A stretch of 64,000 nt of DNA from NCBI GenBank assembly GCA_964441235.1, contig CAYTUQ010000010.1, forward strand, positions 11,549 to 75,548, read 5' to 3'. Under the pieces are notes generated by a model, which had not been told where the DNA came from, did no database searches, and worked only from the letters and a program-made list of their open reading frames with translations. The position numbers and the translations under genes were made by a program. Below are positions 10,168-60,614 of the stretch, one piece after another. Within the stretch, counting starts at the first letter, position 1. Each line of letters starts with the position of its first letter. Source of the stretch: an uncultured bacterium. GTDB taxonomy: Bacteria; Fidelibacterota; UBA2242.

Positions 10168-10175
10168 CAAATTCG

Positions 10176-10248
10176 TTTAGCCCTTCGGGCACGTCAGGGA
10201 TGTCTTTTTGAGAGAAACGGGTTTGAATCGTAGCTGCGAACTGTCTAG
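10176..10248 (+). repeat. Hairpin repeat copy 1 (cgtttagcccTTCGgggc...gagagaaacggg)
   Basis: About 90% identical to 10383-10447. Contains a C(UUCG)G-type tetraloop hairpin and flanking inverted cccgttt/aaacggg arms. Confidence 0.6.
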
Positions 10249-10382
10249 TTCGCATTTTATATATAGATGCTATTAATTAATTTTGTCTAACAAAACTGTT
10301 AATTATGCGAAAAAAACCTGTTTTCGCGATAGCCAAACAGGTTTTTTATAACAACAAATGATTAGTTTTATGACCGGGACAA

Positions 10383-10447
10383 AACCCGTTTAGCCCTTCG
10401 GGCGCGTCAGGGACGTCTCTTTGAGAGAAACGGGTTTGAGTCGTAGA
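10383..10447 (+). repeat. Hairpin repeat copy 2
   Basis: Direct repeat of 10176-10248. A terminator-like hairpin (aaacctgttttcgcgatagccaaacaggtttttt) lies between the copies. Confidence 0.6.
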
Positions 10448-11957: not shown

Positions 11958-12779
11958 TTAGGCATTTGTTACACTTTGAATATATCGGGATAAACCTTCC
12001 TTGCTTTTCTGAGAAATGGAATTATCAACTAATTTTTTTCTTTGATCCTTTCTAACATCAAGACAGTTATTTTTCACCTTAATTCCTGTAACTAATGTTG
12101 GACCAACTTTATAAAAGGTCTTTTTATGGCTTATATTATATCCATTATCGCAAATAATTTGAATTATATTTGGTGTTTTGTCTTTAAAATCCGTTTGACT
12201 TGAAAAAGAGAGATCATCAACGAACCGAGTATATACAATTTTTTTTTCTTTACAGAACTCTAACAATACTTTATCAATAGGCAAAAAAACTAAATTAGCT
12301 AGATGTGGGCTTGTCGGAGTCCCTTGTGGTAAACATCCTTTATAAGTTGTCAATAATGTTAATAAATGGCTTACATCTGCAGAAAACGAATTATTAATAA
12401 ACATATTGTAAACATACATATGGTTTACTGAGGGGAAAAAACCCTGTAAATCTGTACAGAAAAAATATTTCTTCCCTTGATGCTTTTTTGCATTTGTAAT
12501 ATTACTCTTTTTTGTAACACCTCCGTGAATATGAGATAGTAATGGTATTTTAGATAAAATTTTATCCTTAATTTTGACTTGAATTTCTTTTAATAAATCT
12601 TTACTTGGATACAATATTCTATTAACAGGTTCACCATTTTTCATTTTAGGCGTCTTATCATCATTAGTTTTTGGTTCTATTTTCTTATAATAATATCTAT
12701 CAATGTTTTCAATAACATGTTTAATAACATCGAGATCAAAATCTAATGTATAAGCAAGATGTTTTGGTTTTTGGATCAT
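11958..12779 (-). CDS. Retron-type reverse transcriptase
   Basis: YYYKKIEPK...NRILYPS (the retron Y..F.IpKk motif), NAKKH (retron-specific NAxxH), FFCTDLQGFFPSV (RT motif 1/2), LPQGTPTSPHLANLVF (motif 4), TRFVDDLSFS (the Y/F-A/V-DD catalytic box) and VTGIKV (the retron VTG motif). Its size, 273 aa, fits the retron range. Confidence 0.85.
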   Translation of the reverse strand: MIQKPKHLAYTLDFDLDVIKHVIENIDRYYYKKIEPKTNDDKTPKMKNGEPVNRILYPSKDLLKEIQVKIKDKILSKIPLLSHIHGGVTKKSNITNAKKHQGKKYFFCTDLQGFFPSVNHMYVYNMFINNSFSADVSHLLTLLTTYKGCLPQGTPTSPHLANLVFLPIDKVLLEFCKEKKIVYTRFVDDLSFSSQTDFKDKTPNIIQIICDNGYNISHKKTFYKVGPTLVTGIKVKNNCLDVRKDQRKKLVDNSISQKSKEGLSRYIQSVTNA

Positions 12780-13069
12780 TATTTTAAAAAAATGTTGTTT
12801 ATTAATTCATTGATAGTTGGAGATACTATTCTGAAAACATCTTTTTTTGAATTTTCCACGTCATTTTCGGTTAATGATTGGAAATATATTACTGGTACTG
12901 GTACTCCAAGAATGGCACTAATTTTTTCTATGAGGTTAATATTTGGATTTCTTTTGCCATGTTCAATTAATGACAAATATGTTTGTGTGATTTCACATCT
13001 TTCTGATAAATCTTTTTGTTTAAAACCTTTTGATTTTCTAATGGTTTTAATTGCCTGTCCTATTTCCAT
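12779..13069 (-). CDS. XRE-family helix-turn-helix protein, coupled to the RT by an ATGA overlap
   Basis: FKQKDLSERCEITQTYLSLIEHGKRNP is a canonical Cro/C1 HTH. Its stop overlaps the RT start. Confidence 0.8.
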   Translation of the reverse strand: MEIGQAIKTIRKSKGFKQKDLSERCEITQTYLSLIEHGKRNPNINLIEKISAILGVPVPVIYFQSLTENDVENSKKDVFRIVSPTINELINNIFLK

Positions 13070-26054: not shown

Positions 26055-26554
26055 TGATAACTGTAGACACCCATATCATTATTTGGGATGCTTTGAAACC
26101 GGAATTGCTAAGTGAAAAAGCAAAAAGTGAATTGGAACGAGCAAACCAAACAGATGGGATTATTTTCTGCGATATTTCTCTTTGGGAAATTGCAATGCTG
26201 ATTAAGAAGAAAAGAATAGAAATTGATGTCCCATATCTTGAATTCATAGATTTAGTTAAAGCTTCAAATAATTACATTTTTCAAGAAATAACTCCAGAGA
26301 TTGCTGAATTATCTGCCAATTTAACATTAGATATTAATTCAGACCCAGCTGATAGATTAACCCTACTACGTCATTTAGTACTTTTGTATACAATATGTTG
26401 TTTGTATATGTTAATGTTAACCAAACATATAGTGCTATATCTTATAAGTTACGTTGTAGGGTTAATTAGCGACACTTCTCTTATTTCCAATACTACACTA
26501 ATCACAGCTGATAAAAACCTAAGAAAATCGAAAGAATTAAGAACAATATGGTAA
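26054..26554 (+). CDS. VapC PIN-domain toxin carrying an ~40-aa in-frame insertion
   Basis: MITVDTHII...DISLWEI...DPADRL then an atypical hydrophobic stretch before the terminal ...TTLITADKNL PIN block. Confidence 0.65.
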   Translation: MITVDTHIIIWDALKPELLSEKAKSELERANQTDGIIFCDISLWEIAMLIKKKRIEIDVPYLEFIDLVKASNNYIFQEITPEIAELSANLTLDINSDPADRLTLLRHLVLLYTICCLYMLMLTKHIVLYLISYVVGLISDTSLISNTTLITADKNLRKSKELRTIW

Positions 26555-27396: not shown

Positions 27397-27798
27397 ATGA
27401 AAATGAAAAGATCTTTAGGAATAACGATAATTGGATGGTATTTCATCGTTCAGGGATGGATAGCACTCGGACAGTACGGTGATATTGGTAATTTTGCATT
27501 AGTTCTTGTAGCTTTATTTGTATGTATTGGCATCGGCTTGCTCAAACTATTTAACATTGCAAGAATTGCCGCTATACTTTTATTTGTTATTCTATCCTGT
27601 TATTCTTTATTTCTCACCATTAATTTATCAAGTCAATATTCAGACTCTATGATTGTAGGGAAAGCCATATCCATGCTTATATTTAGTACGGTGTTATTAA
27701 TTATATTCTTGTTTTTCTTTACAAGGCCTAATATTAAAAACCAATTCAAAGAAAAAAGTAGTTCAAAAAATAAAAATAATGGGTCTGTTAATTCATAA
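27397..27798 (+). CDS. Small integral membrane protein (4 TM)
   Basis: Hydrophobic helices with a K/S-rich tail. No family recognised. Confidence 0.45.
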   Translation: MKMKRSLGITIIGWYFIVQGWIALGQYGDIGNFALVLVALFVCIGIGLLKLFNIARIAAILLFVILSCYSLFLTINLSSQYSDSMIVGKAISMLIFSTVLLIIFLFFFTRPNIKNQFKEKSSSKNKNNGSVNS

Positions 27799-27824
27799 TA
27801 GAAAATTTTACATATATTGACAAT

Positions 27825-28014
27825 GATAAGCCGACCGCAGGCGGTCGGCTTATCGGCACGGGAGTTGTTGGCTCACTCCATGAAAGTCCGCCTGCGGCGG
27901 CCTATCAATGTCGTTCGAGCCGACCCCGCCTACGGCGGCTACGTCCTGTACTCGCATCTGAGAGAAATCCTTTCTCTCCTTGCTGCGTACAGGATGCGGC
28001 TCAACTCCCGTGCC
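27825..28014 (+). mobile_element. 190-bp GC-rich hairpin-ended miniature element, copy 1 (PATE / IS200-605-derived-like)
   Basis: Perfect 30-nt palindrome gataagccgaccgcaggcggtcggcttatc at one end, with ggcacgggagttg...caactcccgtgcc enclosing the rest. It is essentially identical to the inverted copy at 42620-42809 and much GC-richer than the host. The ORF called inside it is rejected. Confidence 0.65.
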
Positions 28015-28047
28015 GTTAGCACAATAAAATGAAGAGGCAGATATAAA

Positions 28048-28626
28048 TTGTCATTAGTATATCGAAATTATAAAAATCAGGAATTCTATCTTCATAAATC
28101 TTTAACAAAAAAAGGTAATCCCAAATATTACTTTTCTACTAAGAAAGAAGGAGAACTTGTTGATTATATTCCTGACGGATATGAAATATACGAAAATCCA
28201 AATGGGCAGGTTTTTTTAAGTAGAATACAACCAAAGCTTATTACTGATGATGAAAAGAGCATTGTTTTAAATGGAATGTACAAATATTCGGATGTAAATA
28301 TATTTAAAATTGATGTAAAGAGAGATATAATAAACATTTATACTCCTGATCAAGATATTGAAGAACTCTCAAAATTTATAGAGATGTCTCCCCTTAGAAG
28401 AAAAAATAGAGATAAAGATAACATAATTAATCAAGTAGTTCATTATTCACCTGTTTTACAATTTATATTAGTTGATAGTTCAATGAGGCATTTTATAACA
28501 AGAAGATATTGTTATTTAGGTTCAATAGATGATTGGATTGAGATCGGACAAATTGGAATACTATCAGATTTAGTGAAGAAATATGTAAAGCATATTGGTA
28601 AAGATTCATATTATGATTTAGATTAA
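28048..28626 (+). CDS. Hypothetical protein (192 aa)
   Basis: ORF with no recognisable motifs. It lies in an accessory region. Confidence 0.45.
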   Translation: MSLVYRNYKNQEFYLHKSLTKKGNPKYYFSTKKEGELVDYIPDGYEIYENPNGQVFLSRIQPKLITDDEKSIVLNGMYKYSDVNIFKIDVKRDIINIYTPDQDIEELSKFIEMSPLRRKNRDKDNIINQVVHYSPVLQFILVDSSMRHFITRRYCYLGSIDDWIEIGQIGILSDLVKKYVKHIGKDSYYDLD

Positions 28627-28815
28627 AAAAATAAGGTGCTAACCATCTCATGCACCCGACAGCGAACGCAGTTGCATGATTGGAGGGATTTAGAGTTTGG
28701 GAATCATTAGTGAAAGAGTTAAAGGTTTACTGATTTAAGTTCGCTGCGGGTGATGAAGTTTCCGTTATCTGCCATTATTAAAGGTATGAAGGTAGATTTG
28801 TGAGAGGAGTTTTAT

Positions 28816-29601
28816 ATGGAACAGTTTAATCAAAAAAATTATTGGACATGGAGGAAAATATTGACGGGTTTAGGAGTTATATTAATCTTGATTATTATCT
28901 ACTTTGTAAATAGAGACTCCACGAATTTGCCAGAACAGATTAAGAAACACCCAAAAGAGACAAAATTATTAGAAGACGAAGCTCGTGAAGCAGTTTCATC
29001 TATGGACCAGGATGATATAAATCTGATGGAAGAACTCACTCAAAAGGCAATTAATCTATTACCCGATGATGAAAAACAACAGCTCATATCCTTGCAACTT
29101 CGGTTCAATGAATATAGTTATGATGCCCTAACAGAAAACGAAATAAATACAATGCAACAGTTAAACAAAAAAGCCATTGGTTTATTATCCACAGAAGATA
29201 ATCTAAAACTAAGCAAGATATTTGAAAGAGCCGTGGATGAAGTTCGTAAAGATATTAAAGAACAAATTCCTAATCAAGACAACTCCCGTTTGAAAGAACT
29301 GGTGGGTAAATTGGATGACCCTGATGAAGCAGTGAGATGGAAAGCAATATTGGAATTAGAAAGGCTGGGGCCAAAGGCAAAGGAAATAATTCCAGACCTT
29401 ATACGGTACTTAGAGAATGATGATTGGCGGATTAGGTATTATGCCGTTGAAATACTGGGAATGATAGGTTCAGATGCTAAAGCTGCTTTCTCAGCTTTAC
29501 AAAAGGTATCAAAAGACCCTGATTGGAAAGTTCGCAAGAGAGCTTCATGGGCACTCGATGAAATATCAAAAAATAATAAAAAGAATAATACCGGCAGATA
29601 A
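28816..29601 (+). CDS. HEAT/PBS-lyase-like repeat protein with an N-terminal TM anchor
   Basis: DDPDEAVRWKAILELERLG...DDWRIRYYAVEILGMIG...DPDWKVRKRASWALDEI HEAT repeats. Internal DD.NLMEELTQKAI / ENEINTMQQLNKKAI repeats. Confidence 0.7.
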   Translation: MEQFNQKNYWTWRKILTGLGVILILIIIYFVNRDSTNLPEQIKKHPKETKLLEDEAREAVSSMDQDDINLMEELTQKAINLLPDDEKQQLISLQLRFNEYSYDALTENEINTMQQLNKKAIGLLSTEDNLKLSKIFERAVDEVRKDIKEQIPNQDNSRLKELVGKLDDPDEAVRWKAILELERLGPKAKEIIPDLIRYLENDDWRIRYYAVEILGMIGSDAKAAFSALQKVSKDPDWKVRKRASWALDEISKNNKKNNTGR

Positions 29602-29619
29602 CAAAACGCTGCACCAGAC

Positions 29620-29659
29620 CGCTATTCCGCTACGCTCCATAGCGGCAGGTGAATTTTTT
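29620..29659 (+). terminator. Rho-independent terminator
   Basis: ccgctat(12-nt loop)atagcgg hairpin + caggtgaaTTTTTT. It shares the ggtgaRtttttt tail with the 25591 terminator. Confidence 0.4.
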
Positions 29660-29690
29660 CGTTAGGTTATTACTTTTACGAGGATAAAAT

Positions 29691-30704: not shown

Positions 30705-30906
30705 ATTTCAATTAGCATATCCTAACGAATCTTTTATAGAAAGTAAAGTCAAGAACATAATTCACCGTAACCCCTAGTTTTTAACTTTTAGGGCGCCATA
30801 AAGACGGTTGAAATTTTACTAATGTCGCACTGCCTGTTTTCATAGAGGATATTTCCAGTTTGAAAAACCATACTTATATAACAGGGATTTCTAACCGATC
30901 AGTTTT

Positions 30907-31031
30907 GCCTCAACGGAAGTCTCTGGTGAGACACCTGACGCCATATAAATAAAATAACGATAGCCGAGAAAATCTTTTATTCAGTGTCAGCGTGCACCAA
31001 AGGCGTCTCAATGTGACAAGCAGTGGTTGAA
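30907..31031 (+). repeat. attC-like ~125-bp direct repeat, copy 1
   Basis: Starts gcctcaacgg. It has internal imperfect palindromes (gagacac...gcgtctc; ctgacgcc...ggcgtcag), and similarity to copy 2 ends at ...caagcagNggttg. Confidence 0.45.
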
Positions 31032-31262
31032 ACCATCCCATGGAATTAACGAGGTGAGCTGCTCGACAAAATTAGGTTTTGGCGATTTTACCAAAGATTT
31101 ACGAATGTTAAAAGTAAATCACTTCGAAATCCGGCGTATCTCATACGTTGACCGTTAGCACGTAACAATAGAACAACGAAATAATATAAAATCCTTTTAA
31201 TTAACCATAGCATTGATTATCTTAGTTATGTTGTATGACTAAGTAATAAAAGGGGTAAAAAA

Positions 31263-31873: not shown

Positions 31874-31901
31874 GCAAGTAATGTGCTAATGAATCTGCTT
31901 C

Positions 31902-32021
31902 GCCTCAACGGAAGTCTCTGGCGAGGCACCTGACGCCATATAAATAAAATAACGATAGCTGAAAATCTTTTATTCGGCGTCAGCGTGCACCAAAGGCGTC
32001 TCAATGTGACAAGCAGGGGTT
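31902..32021 (+). repeat. attC-like direct repeat, copy 2
   Basis: About 94% identical to 30907-31031 over ~120 nt. It brackets the Phd–VapC cassette. Confidence 0.45.
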
Positions 32022-32282
32022 GCCTGCCCGACGCAGGCGGGAACAAAGCCATCTATCTGGAATTTGCACGGCTTTGAGTTATGCTGATAATCAGTGGTGA
32101 ACAGGTAAAATATTCAGTTTATTGCAGCAATGTTAATCATAAACGTTGTTTTTTATCGGATATCTTGATGAAAACCGGTCCGATACCCAAGGAATACCGA
32201 ATTCTGCAAAAACTATTCTCATGCCGCAATTTGCGGCTTATAGCGACATATAGCGCTAATTTTTGTGAGTTACTTTGTAGGC

Positions 32283-42221: not shown

Positions 42222-43623
42222 ATGATTATCAGAAATTCTTATTTAAAAAAAATCGAGCCTTTTATTGACAAGCCGCTGACAAAAGTCATTACAGGTATGC
42301 GGCGAACTGGGAAAAGTACATTTTTACAAATGCTCATACAGCAGATTCGTGAAAAAGGTGCTGTTGATAGTCAGATTCTCTGGATCAACAAGGAATTGGT
42401 AGAATTTGACTCTATTCGTAATTACCTTGATCTTTACCAGTATGTCAGGGATTATTTTAAGACAAAATCAAAAAATAACTATCTGTTTATTGACGAGGTA
42501 CAGGATATCGAAGACTGGGAAAAAGCAGTAGCTTCATTTTTAGCCAATCAAATGGCTGATATTTACATCACTGGTTCTAATGCACGTATATATTCTTCGG
42601 AGCTATCAACTCTGCTAGCGGCACGGGAGTTGAGCCGCATCCTGTACGCAGCAAGGAGAGAAAGGATTTCTCTCAGATGCGAGTACAGGACGTAGCCGCC
42701 GTAGGCGGGGTCGGCTCGAACGACATTGATAGGCCGCCGCAGGCGGACTTTCATGGAGTGAGCCAACAACTCCCGTGCCGATAAGCCGACCGCCTGCGGT
42801 CGGCTTATCGGGACGTTATATAGAAATTCCGATGTTTACTTTAAGTTTCAGCGAATTCCTCCAATTCAGAGAAAAGTCTTATACCGCTCTCAATACTGAT
42901 GATGAATTTAGCCTATTTCTGAAGTATGGTGGTTTTCCGGGAATCCACGCACTGGAGTTTGAAGATAAAACGGTTTTTCAATACCTTGACTCCCTCTACA
43001 ATACAATCTTAATTAAGGATGTTATCAGACGGCATAAGATTCGAGATGTTGGAGTCCTGGAGAACGTTGCTCGTTTCATCTTCGATAATTGCGGGAATGT
43101 TACGACGGCTAAGCGGATACCAGACTACCTTAAGAATAAGAAAATGAGAATTTCAACTGATACTGTACTTAATTATTTGTCTTATCTACGAAGTGCGTTT
43201 CTAATCCATAAAACCGGGCATTATGACCTGAAGGGATTAAGACACCTTGAATTTAACGATAAATATTACCTTGGTGATATCGGTCTGCGACATAGCATTT
43301 TAGGTTATAAAAACCGCGATATTTCCGGTCTTCTGGAGAATATTGTCTTCTTAGAACTACTGCGACGTGGCTATCGAATTTTTATCGGAAGACTTAATGG
43401 CAGAGAGATAGATTTCGTTGCTGAAAAGAGTGACGAACGAATTTATATACAGGTATGTTACCTGCTTGCAGACAGCAGTACGATCGAACGCGAATTCGTC
43501 CCACTCGAAAAGATAGAAGATAATTACCCCAAGATGGTGCTGTCCATGGATAAGATTTATATTCCTGATAGAAAGGGAATTATCAGGCAAAATCTGATCA
43601 AGTTTCTATTAAGTGAAAAATGA
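42222..43623 (+). pseudogene. AAA+ ATPase (AAA_14/DUF4143 family) interrupted by the 190-bp hairpin element
   Basis: Walker A GMRRTGKST and IYITGSNARIYSSELSTLLA| then the insertion, then |GRYIEIPMFTLSFSEF..., the canonical continuation. The insert is 190 bp, so the frame shifts by 1. Confidence 0.7.
42620..42809 (-). mobile_element. 190-bp GC-rich hairpin-ended miniature element, copy 2 (inverted)
   Basis: Reverse complement is identical to 27825-28014. Both copies share the flank motif g[ct]tagca next to the cccgtgcc end. Confidence 0.65.
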
Positions 43624-54974: not shown

Positions 54975-55140
54975 GCTAGAAGATATTTGCTCATAATCAT
55001 TTAAATATTTTACATCCTCTTGCCCCAAATATTGCAGTTCCAATTCTCACCATATTAGCGCCTTCTTCTATTGCAACTTTATACTAATTTGTCATTCCCA
55101 TTGACAGTGTTTTCATCTCAACACCTGGTAAGTTAAGAGT
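54975..55140 (-). pseudogene. Decayed duplicate of the yggS 3' end
   Basis: The minus translation [41 protein letters not shown] parallels the C-terminus of the 58387-59082 gene. About 85-90% nt identity, with an internal stop. Confidence 0.6.
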
Positions 55141-55249
55141 TTCAATTTATAAAAATCCTTTTACTTGATTTTTAATTATTTGTTCGATATATTCAAATGT
55201 TCGGTCAGACCGAACATTTGAATATATCGAACATTTTGGAGGAATCTGA

Positions 55250-58386: not shown

Positions 58387-59082
58387 CTATAATTTACATT
58401 TTCTCGGCCCGAATATTGCCGTTCCTATTCTCACCATATTAGCGCCTTCCTCTATGGCAACTTTATATGAATTTGTCATTCCCATTGAAAGAGTTTTCAT
58501 CTCGACACCCGGCAAATTAAGTCCTCTAATTTTTCTGGAAAATCCTCTCACCTTTCGGAAATAAGGCCTACTCTGTTCAGGATCTCCTCCAATCGGTCCG
58601 ATTGTCATCAATCCTTCCAATCTTAGATGTTCAAGTTCCGAAATGCTTTTAGCCAATTTCTCTATGATTTTGTAATCTGGTTTAATACCTGATTTTGAAA
58701 TTTCGCTGCCTATATTTATTTCAATATAAATAGGAATCACTTTTTTCTCGGCATGCTCAACTCTTTTATCGATAGCTTGTGCCATTTCCAAAGAATCAAC
58801 AGTCTGAATAATATCGAAAATTTTTAGTGCTTTATTTATTTTGTTTGTTTGCAGATGACCAATCATGTGCTACCTGACTTTTTCTCTTTCTTTGAACAGA
58901 GTATTGCAGATTTTTTCTCCCTCCTGAACATAATTTTCGCCAATATCTGTAGCACCTGCTTTTATAACCTCTATTACTTCGTTAGTGGTTCTCTGTTTTG
59001 CTGCCACGACAATTGTTACGTATTCAGGGATTGATTCTCTAATTTTTTGATAATTTTCTGTAATAGACATTTTTATCCCCAT
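58387..59082 (-). pseudogene. yggS: YggS-family PLP-binding protein with an in-frame TAG at the conserved Trp (…KEREKVR*HMIGHLQTNK)
   Basis: ORFs 58870..59082 and 58387..58866 are the same frame, separated by one TAG (complement of 58870-58872). The homologous E. coli block is LEWHFIGPLQSNK. Confidence 0.7.
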
Positions 59083-60027: not shown

Positions 60028-60614
60028 GACGAAATTTACAGTAATAATTTGTTATTCATAAAAATATTAATTGTTTAATTGTAGAACTGTTTTTTCCCTA
60101 ATCAAACAACTTAAGTTAAGTTCGCCTCGATGATTTTACTCAAGTTTCGATTAATTCATCTTGATGAAGTCTCGATGTAATATAGAGTTTTACATCAGAG
60201 AGCGGACTTAACTCAAGTTTTTATCCACTACTGTATTAACTTTCTAAAGGCTTAACCCTGGATCATCTTCCGTAAAATGAAATATTTCTGTTTCAGCCTC
60301 CCGAAGGTCTTTTCTTTCTTCCAATAAAACTGAGATGTTATATATAGTGTTTTTCAGTTGCGTCAGGAGCTTACTCCCAACACAATAAATAACATAATCT
60401 CCAGCTATCTGTAAGATTCCATTAGCAAAGTCGTACCCTTCTTATTAGATGGGGATTTTTTTTTCAAAGGAGTGACAAAAGAGGGTTTTAAAAATTATTA
60501 GACGAAAACTGAGATATTACCTTTATTGTTCTATTTCTTTTCTCTAATAAAGGGGCTAAATTTTGGACGTTTTCTGCGGCTAAAGGAATTATTAGTAATA
60601 AAAAAGAGACTATA

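Follow-up and report, generated by a model that had tools for sequence, protein, structure and literature searches.

The 64,000-nt stretch of an uncultured bacterium analysed here (GTDB lineage Fidelibacterota; UBA2242; contig CAYTUQ010000010.1), to which we refer as the window, contains two inverted copies of a GC-rich element of 190 nt, one of them within an AAA+ ATPase gene. From its borders, its position next to integron components and its relatives at other loci we conclude that this element is very probably a highly mobile integron cassette without an open reading frame (ORF), which is moved by an integron integrase. In our best reading it amounts to an attC site that stands by itself and carries a non-coding, self-complementary payload of about 70 nt.

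The 190-nt element and the genes it interrupts

Positions 27825-28021 and 42613-42809 are reverse complements of each other over 197 nt (99% identity), and the central 190 nt are 100% identical (27825-28014 on the - strand, 42620-42809 on the + strand), which confirms the two inverted identical copies described in the initial annotation. Beyond the element, likeness is limited to 7 nt on one side (TGCTAAC vs TGCTAGC), and the opposite flanks are unrelated. Copy 2 lies 14.6 kb from copy 1, in inverted orientation and within a gene; copy 1 is intergenic. The copies had been described as far richer in GC than their host, and indeed the G+C content of the element, which holds no ORF, is 61%, as against 35.5% for the window. 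The inverted sequence pair described earlier was found as 13-nt arms, GGCACGGGAGTTG / CAACTCCCGTGCC, at 42620-42632 / 42767-42779 of copy 2. The supposedly perfect 30-nt palindrome is a genuine hairpin with a 13-bp stem and a 4-nt loop, but it is not perfect, since the 14-nt arms of GATAAGCCGACCGC-NN-GCGGTCGGCTTATC enclose a 2-nt centre that is not self-complementary (28/30). This hairpin, referred to as hairpin D, is present at one end of the element only, and is composed of the first 6 nt of the cassette (the right half of the circular-form R'), a GC palindrome of 16 nt and an R''-like box. Folded as single strands, both strands are far more stable than their shuffled versions, with z of about -8 (-8.0 and -8.8 for RNA, -8.3 for DNA).

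Copy 2 had been placed precisely between ...STLLA and GRYIEIPMF... of a DUF4143 ATPase, which was borne out; the insertion is clean and left no target duplication. Deletion of exactly 42620-42809 fuses these residues in frame, giving a 403-aa protein that is 73% identical to intact homologues of 401 aa and aligns with them without a gap across the junction. A second in-gene insertion was identified at locus L015 in a gene with a T9SS sorting domain, which is likewise in frame after removal of the element. Since the removal of exactly 190 nt restores the frame in two genes, a target-site duplication is absent. On the top strand, the targets read ...ACGTCCC-G|CTAGCA in the ATPase gene and ...ACTGTCC-G|ATATCC at L015. 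Both resemble the 3' ends of local attC sites (..TGTCC-GTTAG..), neither insertion has a canonical attC upstream, and the L015 target fits GWT, the consensus reported for genomic attG insertion by IntI1. The best reading of copy 2 is that it inserted naturally at a secondary site of the 'attG' type.

The occurrence of just two, identical copies in the window could also reflect a segmental duplication or an assembly artefact. The homology of the flanks is, however, restricted to the 7-nt site-like motif, the C-terminal fragment of the split ATPase was found on 11 contigs, and identical copies occur at least eight times in other flanks, which leaves this explanation a practically negligible probability. 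A pair confined to the window, with homology extending past the 190 bp, had been named in the initial annotation as the mark of a duplication; instead, the flanks differ and the element is multi-copy in related genomes.

Placement at integron crossover sites

Copy 1 heads the array of a decayed chromosomal integron, and the window from 27.8 to ~32 kb is a cassette array with textbook attC sites, whose integrase gene has been lost. We draw this from the array to the right of copy 1 combined with a left side on which only ~30 nt of attI and no integrase remain, the integrase gene that lies left of the element at loci L009 and L031 being missing from the window. The attC at 28637-28770 forms an L stem with two extrahelical bases on the 3' arm of its bottom strand, copy 1 and the two canonical attCs are all oriented on the + strand, and the genes further along the array include a PhdYeFM/PIN toxin-antitoxin pair.

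The missing part of the integron is seen in relatives. At L005, L009/L020/L025 and L016/L031, the hairpin side of the element abuts a conserved attI-like sequence, which is followed by an intI gene or its remnant; at L005 and at L009, a close relative of the window, the order is hairpin end, conserved AT-rich region and start of a tyrosine recombinase gene. The 166-aa integrase fragment of L005 scores 191 bits on TIGR02249 over half of the model, as against 43 bits for XerC. The full-length integrase of L031/L016 reaches 436.6 bits on TIGR02249 (cutoff 265) after repair of a frameshift and a stop, the repaired L031 protein contains the IntI-specific extra segment, and the database relatives of this integrase bear the source name 'integron integrase'.

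Altogether, junctions between the attI-like sequence (...CCATCTATTGACAATG) and the element were seen in six contexts, and what follows the element differs in each, starting with GTTAG in five cases and with GTTGG in one (L007). These contexts share the attI-element junction and diverge immediately downstream of the element, a pattern that would also arise if the element were a fixed accessory part of the integron platform, i.e. an attC-like extension of attI with cassettes integrating at its right end. This is quite improbable in the light of an unoccupied allele: at L029/L041 (contig Ga0315547_1000273), the orthologous attI, 95.7% identical, is free of the element and joined straight to a cassette (...ATTGACAATG|TTATAG; the intact L029 attI reads ...CCATATATTGACAATG|TTATAG). 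The unoccupied site CAATG|TTATAG of L029 can be set beside the occupied CAATG|ATAAGCC...GTGCCG|TTAG.. of L016/L018/L009. In addition, the same two borders recur at cassette positions 7 and 9 of L029, in Neomarinimicrobiota arrays and in two genes, and cassette deletion could also account for the downstream differences. As a separate observation, the terminal palindrome stands alone at L037 (1189-1218), directly between an attI-like site (...CATCTATCAACAAAG|TTAAGCC...GGCTTAAC) and a cation-efflux (CDF) gene.

The two copies deeper in the L029 array both start exactly past the last G of a canonical 133-nt attC, and the six canonical attCs of this locus and the two element copies all lie on one strand. 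At L004 (Neomarinimicrobiota), three copies of a related type, termed B below, share a single orientation, and one of them directly follows a canonical 74-nt attC, whose R' GTTAAGC equals the first 7 nt of the element. When the bases after the element were tallied on the cassette top strand at 21 distinct junctions, G was found in 21, T in 19, T in 21, R in 21 and G in 17 of them, which matches the integron core site GTTRRRY. At the 3' end of the window copies, R' reads GTTAGCA (copy 1) and GCTAGCA (copy 2), and the left flank occurs in the variants CTAAC, CTAGC, ATATC, CCAAC, ACAAC and ATAAC.

These data also bear on the initial proposal of a palindrome-associated transposable element (PATE), which would be moved in trans by an IS200/IS605-type Y1 HUH transposase cutting single-stranded DNA 3' of a fixed motif. 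A terminal hairpin, strong single-strand folding, the lack of a target-site duplication and insertion 3' of an ...AAC motif on one strand would all suit such an element. We nevertheless consider it very unlikely. The Pfam annotation of the source contig (JGI Ga0315543_1000177) contains neither Y1_Tnp nor OrfB_IS605 nor any integrase; it spans the window from about 2 kb to the end, the first ~2 kb being covered by no more than a ClpB-like gene that runs off the annotated locus, and from ~2 kb onward it upholds the earlier remark that TnpA and TnpB are lacking. Y1_Tnp and TnpB are also missing from the fetched loci for which a gene annotation was returned, and from L039-L045, and no match to the IS605-associated RNA families was obtained. 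Moreover, there is one terminal hairpin only, the flank varies where the IS200/IS605 guide needs fixity and equals the integron core site, and the element lies at exact attI/attC crossovers next to an integron integrase, while attI also exists in an unoccupied form. Of the first description, the discrete nature of the element, its mobility, the hairpin end and the preference for a flank motif are upheld, whereas a fixed flank and mobilisation by IS200/IS605 are not supported.

Further classes of mobile elements were rejected. A miniature inverted-repeat transposable element (MITE) of a DDE transposon is incompatible with the lack of a target-site duplication and with an inverted pair that is not at both termini, and a group I or other intron with borders that lack the required exon/intron bases and with the intergenic position of copy 1. 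A MITE of the IS110/IS1111 bridge-RNA type and Helitron/IS91-like ends account less well for the observations than the position at attI/attC crossovers does, and enzymes that would fit them were not seen.

Family types, folds and further features of the window

Relatives of the element were gathered by scanning genome and metagenome collections for the terminal hairpin. Of the 28 pattern matches in metagenomes, 14 were unrelated GC-rich terminators (AAAAGCCGACCGCnnGCGGTCGGCTTTT) of other bacteria and were discarded; plasmid and phage collections yielded no match to the element. The family comprises five architectural types, labelled A to E, with the window copies belonging to type A, which is 100% identical in at least eight places with different flanks, on other contigs and in other samples, and which occurs at 94-96% identity in two metagenome-assembled genomes. 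Types B-E have in common the terminal palindrome G(A/T)TAAGCCGACCGCnnGCGGTCGGCTTA(A/T)C, the interior ...CAT(T)G(A/T)TAGGCCGCCGCAGGCGG... and a closing stem, whose sequence varies between types while its complementarity is kept. Two variant A copies were observed at L030 (2380-2561 and 3851-4014): in one, the left arm of the closing stem is replaced (GGGCTGCGAGATG) and the pairing is lost, and the other has no terminal palindrome.

Read on the top strand, the element consists of ATAAGC, the 16-nt GC palindrome and GCTTATC (together the terminal hairpin), ~45 nt, an interior GCCTATC box, a stem with one unpaired base, one to three variable hairpins and the return strand, followed by the G|TT of the neighbour. 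Canonical attC sites usually carry two extrahelical bases. Here, the bottom strand from the flanking RYYYAAC to the interior G(T/A)TAGGC can adopt an attC-like fold in all types, referred to as the inner fold, with an R box, a spacer of 7 nt (vs 2-6 nt), a 12-bp stem and one extrahelical base. This base occupies the same alignment column in 9/9 sequences, four pairs of the fold show compensatory double changes, and the inner attC alone, without the 70-nt payload or the hairpin, occurs elsewhere in L026. Because the extra ~70 nt are complementary to the spacer and arms of the inner attC, the minimum-energy structure of the whole element differs from the inner fold; it is made up of a 13-bp closing stem (P1) around three hairpins, P2 and P3 included, and then the terminal 13-bp hairpin. 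P1, P2 and this hairpin preserve their pairing via double changes at 9 of the 36 consensus pairs, and the changes in P1 are compensatory between types. Either of the two alternative folds may be the one that recombines.

The R'' boxes read GCTTAAC and GCCTAAC in types B/E, which is canonical, and GCTTATC and GCCTATC in types A/C/D, including the window copies. In A/C/D, the GAT at the first bases of the cassette itself matches the ATC box, so that the pairing of the circular form is kept, but not the AAC triplet. The two boxes, that of the hairpin and the interior one, change together at position 2 (GAT in A/C/D, GTT in B/E). The bottom strand is more stable than the top strand in 11 of the 13 unique members. 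Type E is represented by a single copy, whose interior runs opposite to the outer shell, as would be expected if the shell is a perfect palindrome and allows recombination of either strand. The co-variation of the boxes, the stability of the bottom strand and the E-type inversion fit an integrase substrate, and the conserved structure is better explained as a folded single-stranded DNA that is recognised by the integrase than as an RNA.

A function of the payload could nevertheless be what conserves the cassette, either as a structured RNA (a small RNA, or an attenuator of transcription or translation for the array) or as a DNA structure with an influence on recombination at the start of the array. 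Between lineages, the element is indeed more conserved (94-96%) than the adjacent attI region (about 78-84%), interior sequence motifs are conserved across types A-E, the element is first after attI in six contexts and would lie there in the path of transcripts from the cassette promoter, and promoter or small-RNA roles of ORF-less cassettes are documented (PMC8876359). We still regard this function as unlikely, considering that the better-folding strand is the bottom one in 11 of 13 members, which is antisense to cassette transcription and as expected for attC DNA, that no Rfam family matches, and that both the in-gene copies and the occurrence of either interior orientation (E type) resemble side effects of mobility rather than of a function tied to position. 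Rfam 15 gave no match at the gathering threshold across the window, and a permissive scan of the element returned a lowest E-value of 0.14 (Hrs13, 16 bits) and a top score of 19 bits (mir-9424, E = 0.18). Two other candidates were discarded: a hammerhead-like GAUGAG...CGAA core, spotted by eye, shows wrong spacing and no Rfam match, and an intrinsic terminator would need a U tract, which is lacking past the hairpin.

The coordinates of the element and of the surrounding features are compiled in Table 1.

Table 1 Features of the two element copies, the cassette array and the split ATPase gene (positions of the window).
Feature	Position	Strand	Remarks
attI remnant (...TTTTACATATATTGACAATG)	27795..27825	+	Crossover G = 27825; homology to L009/L031 attI-intI stops ~24-30 nt past the element
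Copy 1, ORF-less cassette	27825..28014	- (bottom 'S' strand; cassette top strand reads on +)	27826-28015 by integron convention (1-nt border ambiguity); same element at the same place by the intI remnant in L009
Hairpin D, copy 1	27825..27854	.	GATAAGC + CGACCGCAGGCGGTCG + GCTTATC; an A:T -> T:A compensatory change between types keeps the pair
Closing stem P1, 3' arm, copy 1	27855..27867	-	CAACTCCCGTGCC on the - strand; pairs with 28002-28014
Interior core-site-like box GATAGGC, copy 1	27900..27906	-	Proposed bottom-strand R'' of the inner attC fold; GTTAGGC in B/E-type relatives
R' core site GTTAGCA closing copy 1	28015..28021	+	TTAGCA... opens the next cassette
Canonical 134-nt attC of the next cassette	28637..28770	+	Cassette ORF 28048-28626 (192 aa); R box GCTAAC/GTTATC, unpaired spacer
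Canonical 72-nt attC	29596..29667	+	After HEAT-repeat ORF (28816-29601); R' GTTAGGT
Split ATPase gene, AAA_14 N-terminal part	42222..42619	+	Called ORF continues to a stop in the element at 42695
TGCTAGC, target half-site at copy 2	42613..42619	+	Bottom-strand RYYYAAC-like box; other strand G|CTAGCA
Copy 2, in ATPase gene	42620..42809	+	Bottom 'S' strand on +; antisense to the gene in cassette terms
Closing stem P1, copy 2	42620-42632 / 42767-42779	+
Inner L stem, copy 2	42629-42636 / 42713-42721	+
Interior box, copy 2	42728-42734	+
Hairpin D, copy 2	42780..42809	.
Split ATPase gene, DUF4143 C-terminal part	42810..43623	+	Called 282-aa ORF from an in-element GTG at 42775

Several other features of the window were recorded alongside. 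Two neighbouring cassettes carry a ~140-nt repeat (30891-31029 and 31886-32022; 88-95% identical), which adjoins the upstream side of attC ends (GTTAGCA at 31154-31160; GTTATGC near 32078), has no Rfam match and could be another conserved non-coding cassette module. The region from 23.5 to 57 kb, in part beyond the recognisable cassette array, is dense in toxin-antitoxin and defence genes, namely PIN/PhdYeFM (twice), ParE/antitoxin, HEPN/nucleotidyltransferase, Mut7-C, AbiEi and a HinfI-type restriction-modification system. A reverse transcriptase gene at 11958-13069 (- strand; PF00078; PADLOC RT_VI, 242 bits) has a small HTH protein directly upstream (PADLOC HTH_VI, 97 bits), resembling a type VI retron-like defence pair, and ~1.5 kb from this reverse transcriptase two 65-nt direct repeats (10169-10233 and 10382-10446; AAAYYCGTTTAGCCCTTCGGGC...GAGAGAAACGGGTTTGA) are found, which are 91% identical, 213 nt apart and internally complementary, with no credible Rfam match. 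Finally, a 144-nt direct repeat (84% identity) occurs at 55005-55148 and 58389-58532, with a distance of 3.4 kb.

Proposed mobility, known systems and meaning

The moves of the element would be catalysed by IntI, a tyrosine recombinase whose substrate is folded single-stranded DNA, and the family would have spread selfishly and without cargo. On the bottom strand, the unit would open right after RYYYAA|C and close in GCTTAT|C, and excision between these two points would release a 190-nt circle, in which R' (G|ATAAGC) would pair perfectly with R'' (GCTTATC). Re-integration at attI (G|TT) would place it first in the array, with copy 1 as such a case in which intI was lost afterwards, and re-integration at the G|TT of the attC of another cassette would place it between cassettes, as at L029 and L004. 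Occasional insertion into secondary sites would have produced copy 2 at ...GTCCC-G|CTAGCA in the ATPase gene as well as the L015 copy. The 100% identity of dispersed copies points to a recent spread. Since the intI genes beside A-type copies are damaged or absent, the window copies are probably immobile now unless an integrase acts in trans, or else they are fossils of recent activity.

A number of points weigh against an integrase-driven cassette. The lowest-energy fold contains a perfect 13-bp stem by the R box and lacks the defining features of attC, namely an unpaired spacer and extrahelical bases, and the inner fold, which looks canonical, is far less stable; published work links the choice of strand and orientation to such unpaired features (PMC2727003, PMC5027507). 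The A-type R'' boxes GCTTATC / GCCTATC deviate from the canonical RYYYAAC, and the target of copy 2 is G|CT and not GWT. Empty-site alleles were searched for the ATPase gene and the T9SS-tail gene of L015 and none was found: matches with 100% identity were truncated fragments only, and the best intact homologues were 73% (ATPase) and 67% (T9SS-tail) identical. From the truncated fragments on 11-12 contigs it follows that the insertions are fixed in the sampled populations. A k-mer of the circle or tandem junction (CGGCTTATCGGCACGGGAGTTGAGCCGCATCC, vs ...GGAGTTGTTGGCTC on the linear top strand) was absent from the loci fetched. In the closest relatives intI is damaged, with a 25-nt insertion causing a frameshift in L029, L031 and L016, an additional in-frame stop in L031/L016 and a truncation in L009, and the window has no integrase, so that no demonstrably active enzyme stands beside these copies. 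Finally, attC sites were detected by our own script and not by IntegronFinder; strict thresholds gave nothing, and the sites were found by a relaxed version, which also returned probable false positives at 26355-26467 and 60104-60223 of the window that were not used.

Regarding the damaged integrase genes themselves, the 25-nt insertion is palindromic (ATCTCGAAGAGATCTCTACGAGATA) and located after about codon 40 (L029 ~430-460, L031 ~1200-1225, and L016). At L029, the rest of intI is open beyond it and a 322-aa ORF is called, hence the insertion could be an inactivation or a recoding or bypass site. The integrase remnant of L009 (12840-13100; also in L020 and L025) breaks off past codon 68, where a ~70-nt repeat (TTACTT(G/A)TGTCTCC...ACAAGTGG) interrupts it in two copies.

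It is rather doubtful whether the family goes further and acts as a self-sufficient parasitic 'mobile attC'. If so, the outer shell, i.e. the flanking AAC, the closing stem and the palindrome that rebuilds an R-box duplex, would allow insertion in either orientation and would let the integrase cut both ends even without a neighbouring attC, and the payload could toggle the inner attC between a locked and an open fold.

Vibrio cholerae repeats (VCRs) are one of the homogeneous attC families of sedentary chromosomal integrons. Like them, the element is a repeated, structured and host-specific recombination site in a chromosomal integron rich in toxin-antitoxin cassettes; however, VCRs are the attC sites of gene-bearing cassettes, whereas the element is a separate cassette beside 72-134-nt attCs of another family. 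With IS200/IS605 PATEs and REP/RAYT systems (repetitive extragenic palindromes and their associated tyrosine transposases) it has in common that it is a short, non-autonomous hairpin element of single-stranded DNA with a sequence-specific flank and no duplication, but it comes with no HUH enzyme, is tied to intI, attI and attC, and its flank is the integron core site. Group IIC-attC introns and IS1111-attC insertion sequences (PMC3001079) are likewise inserted at attC sites in arrays, yet they encode a reverse transcriptase or a transposase and insert within attC, whereas the element encodes nothing and sits at the crossover.

ORF-less cassettes are known, for instance, from Treponema in oral metagenomes and from the Xanthomonas campestris integron (PMC8876359, section 2.4.3). 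The element shares with these the G|TT crossover borders, the attC at the 3' end, the lack of an ORF and a position first or embedded in the array. The described cassettes, though, combine AT-rich spacers, which contain promoters or small RNAs, with a classical attC, whereas here the part outside attC is GC-rich, measures ~70 nt and consists of an inverted mimic of the attC arms plus a perfect R-box palindrome, and the element is multi-copy, near-identical between loci and also found inside genes. Insertion outside attI and attC has a precedent as well: genomic 'attG' sites (5'-GWT-3') are targets for cassette insertion by IntI1, and genes can be disrupted in this way (Loot et al., bioRxiv 10.1101/2022.09.11.507474). 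As in attC x attG recombination, our in-gene copies entered a short G|WT-like site without duplication, with L015 using G|AT. That study employed IntI1 (plus IntI2 and IntI3) and marked plasmids in E. coli and V. cholerae, while the events described here are natural and concern an ORF-less cassette in an uncultivated host of the FCB group; the target in the window is G|CT, and both in-gene targets mimic local attC 3' ends (TGTCC-G / GTCCC-G).

ORF-less cassettes and attG insertion are both already known, and therefore the kind of element is known. What appears to be new is the architecture, in which an inner attC is accompanied by an inverted mimic of its arms and by an R-box palindrome, together with the host lineage, the natural disruption of genes and the fact that a cassette without cargo has spread in multiple near-identical copies. 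In the literature, we found no paper joining integrons, attC and Marinimicrobia.

Integrons are known chiefly for capturing genes. The de novo formation of cassettes has been called 'largely unknown' (PMC5371416), and cassette insertion outside integrons has been demonstrated with marked constructs in laboratory strains (bioRxiv 10.1101/2022.09.11.507474). The element provides a natural case, in which a cargo-free attC is found at attI, between cassettes and in two unrelated genes of uncultivated FCB-group (Neomarinimicrobiota-like) bacteria; the nearest protein relatives and the chromosomal surroundings of the related integron point to such a host. It thus offers a substrate for asking whether integrases spread bare recombination sites and at what cost, here a split ATPase gene, and whether self-complementary payloads regulate the folding of attC. 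For annotation, it is a warning that integrons, and not IS200/IS605, may be the origin of short, GC-rich hairpin repeats found in AT-rich genomes. If the family does act as a mobile attC, its landing beside or between genes would supply them with ready attC sites and would in this way seed new gene cassettes.

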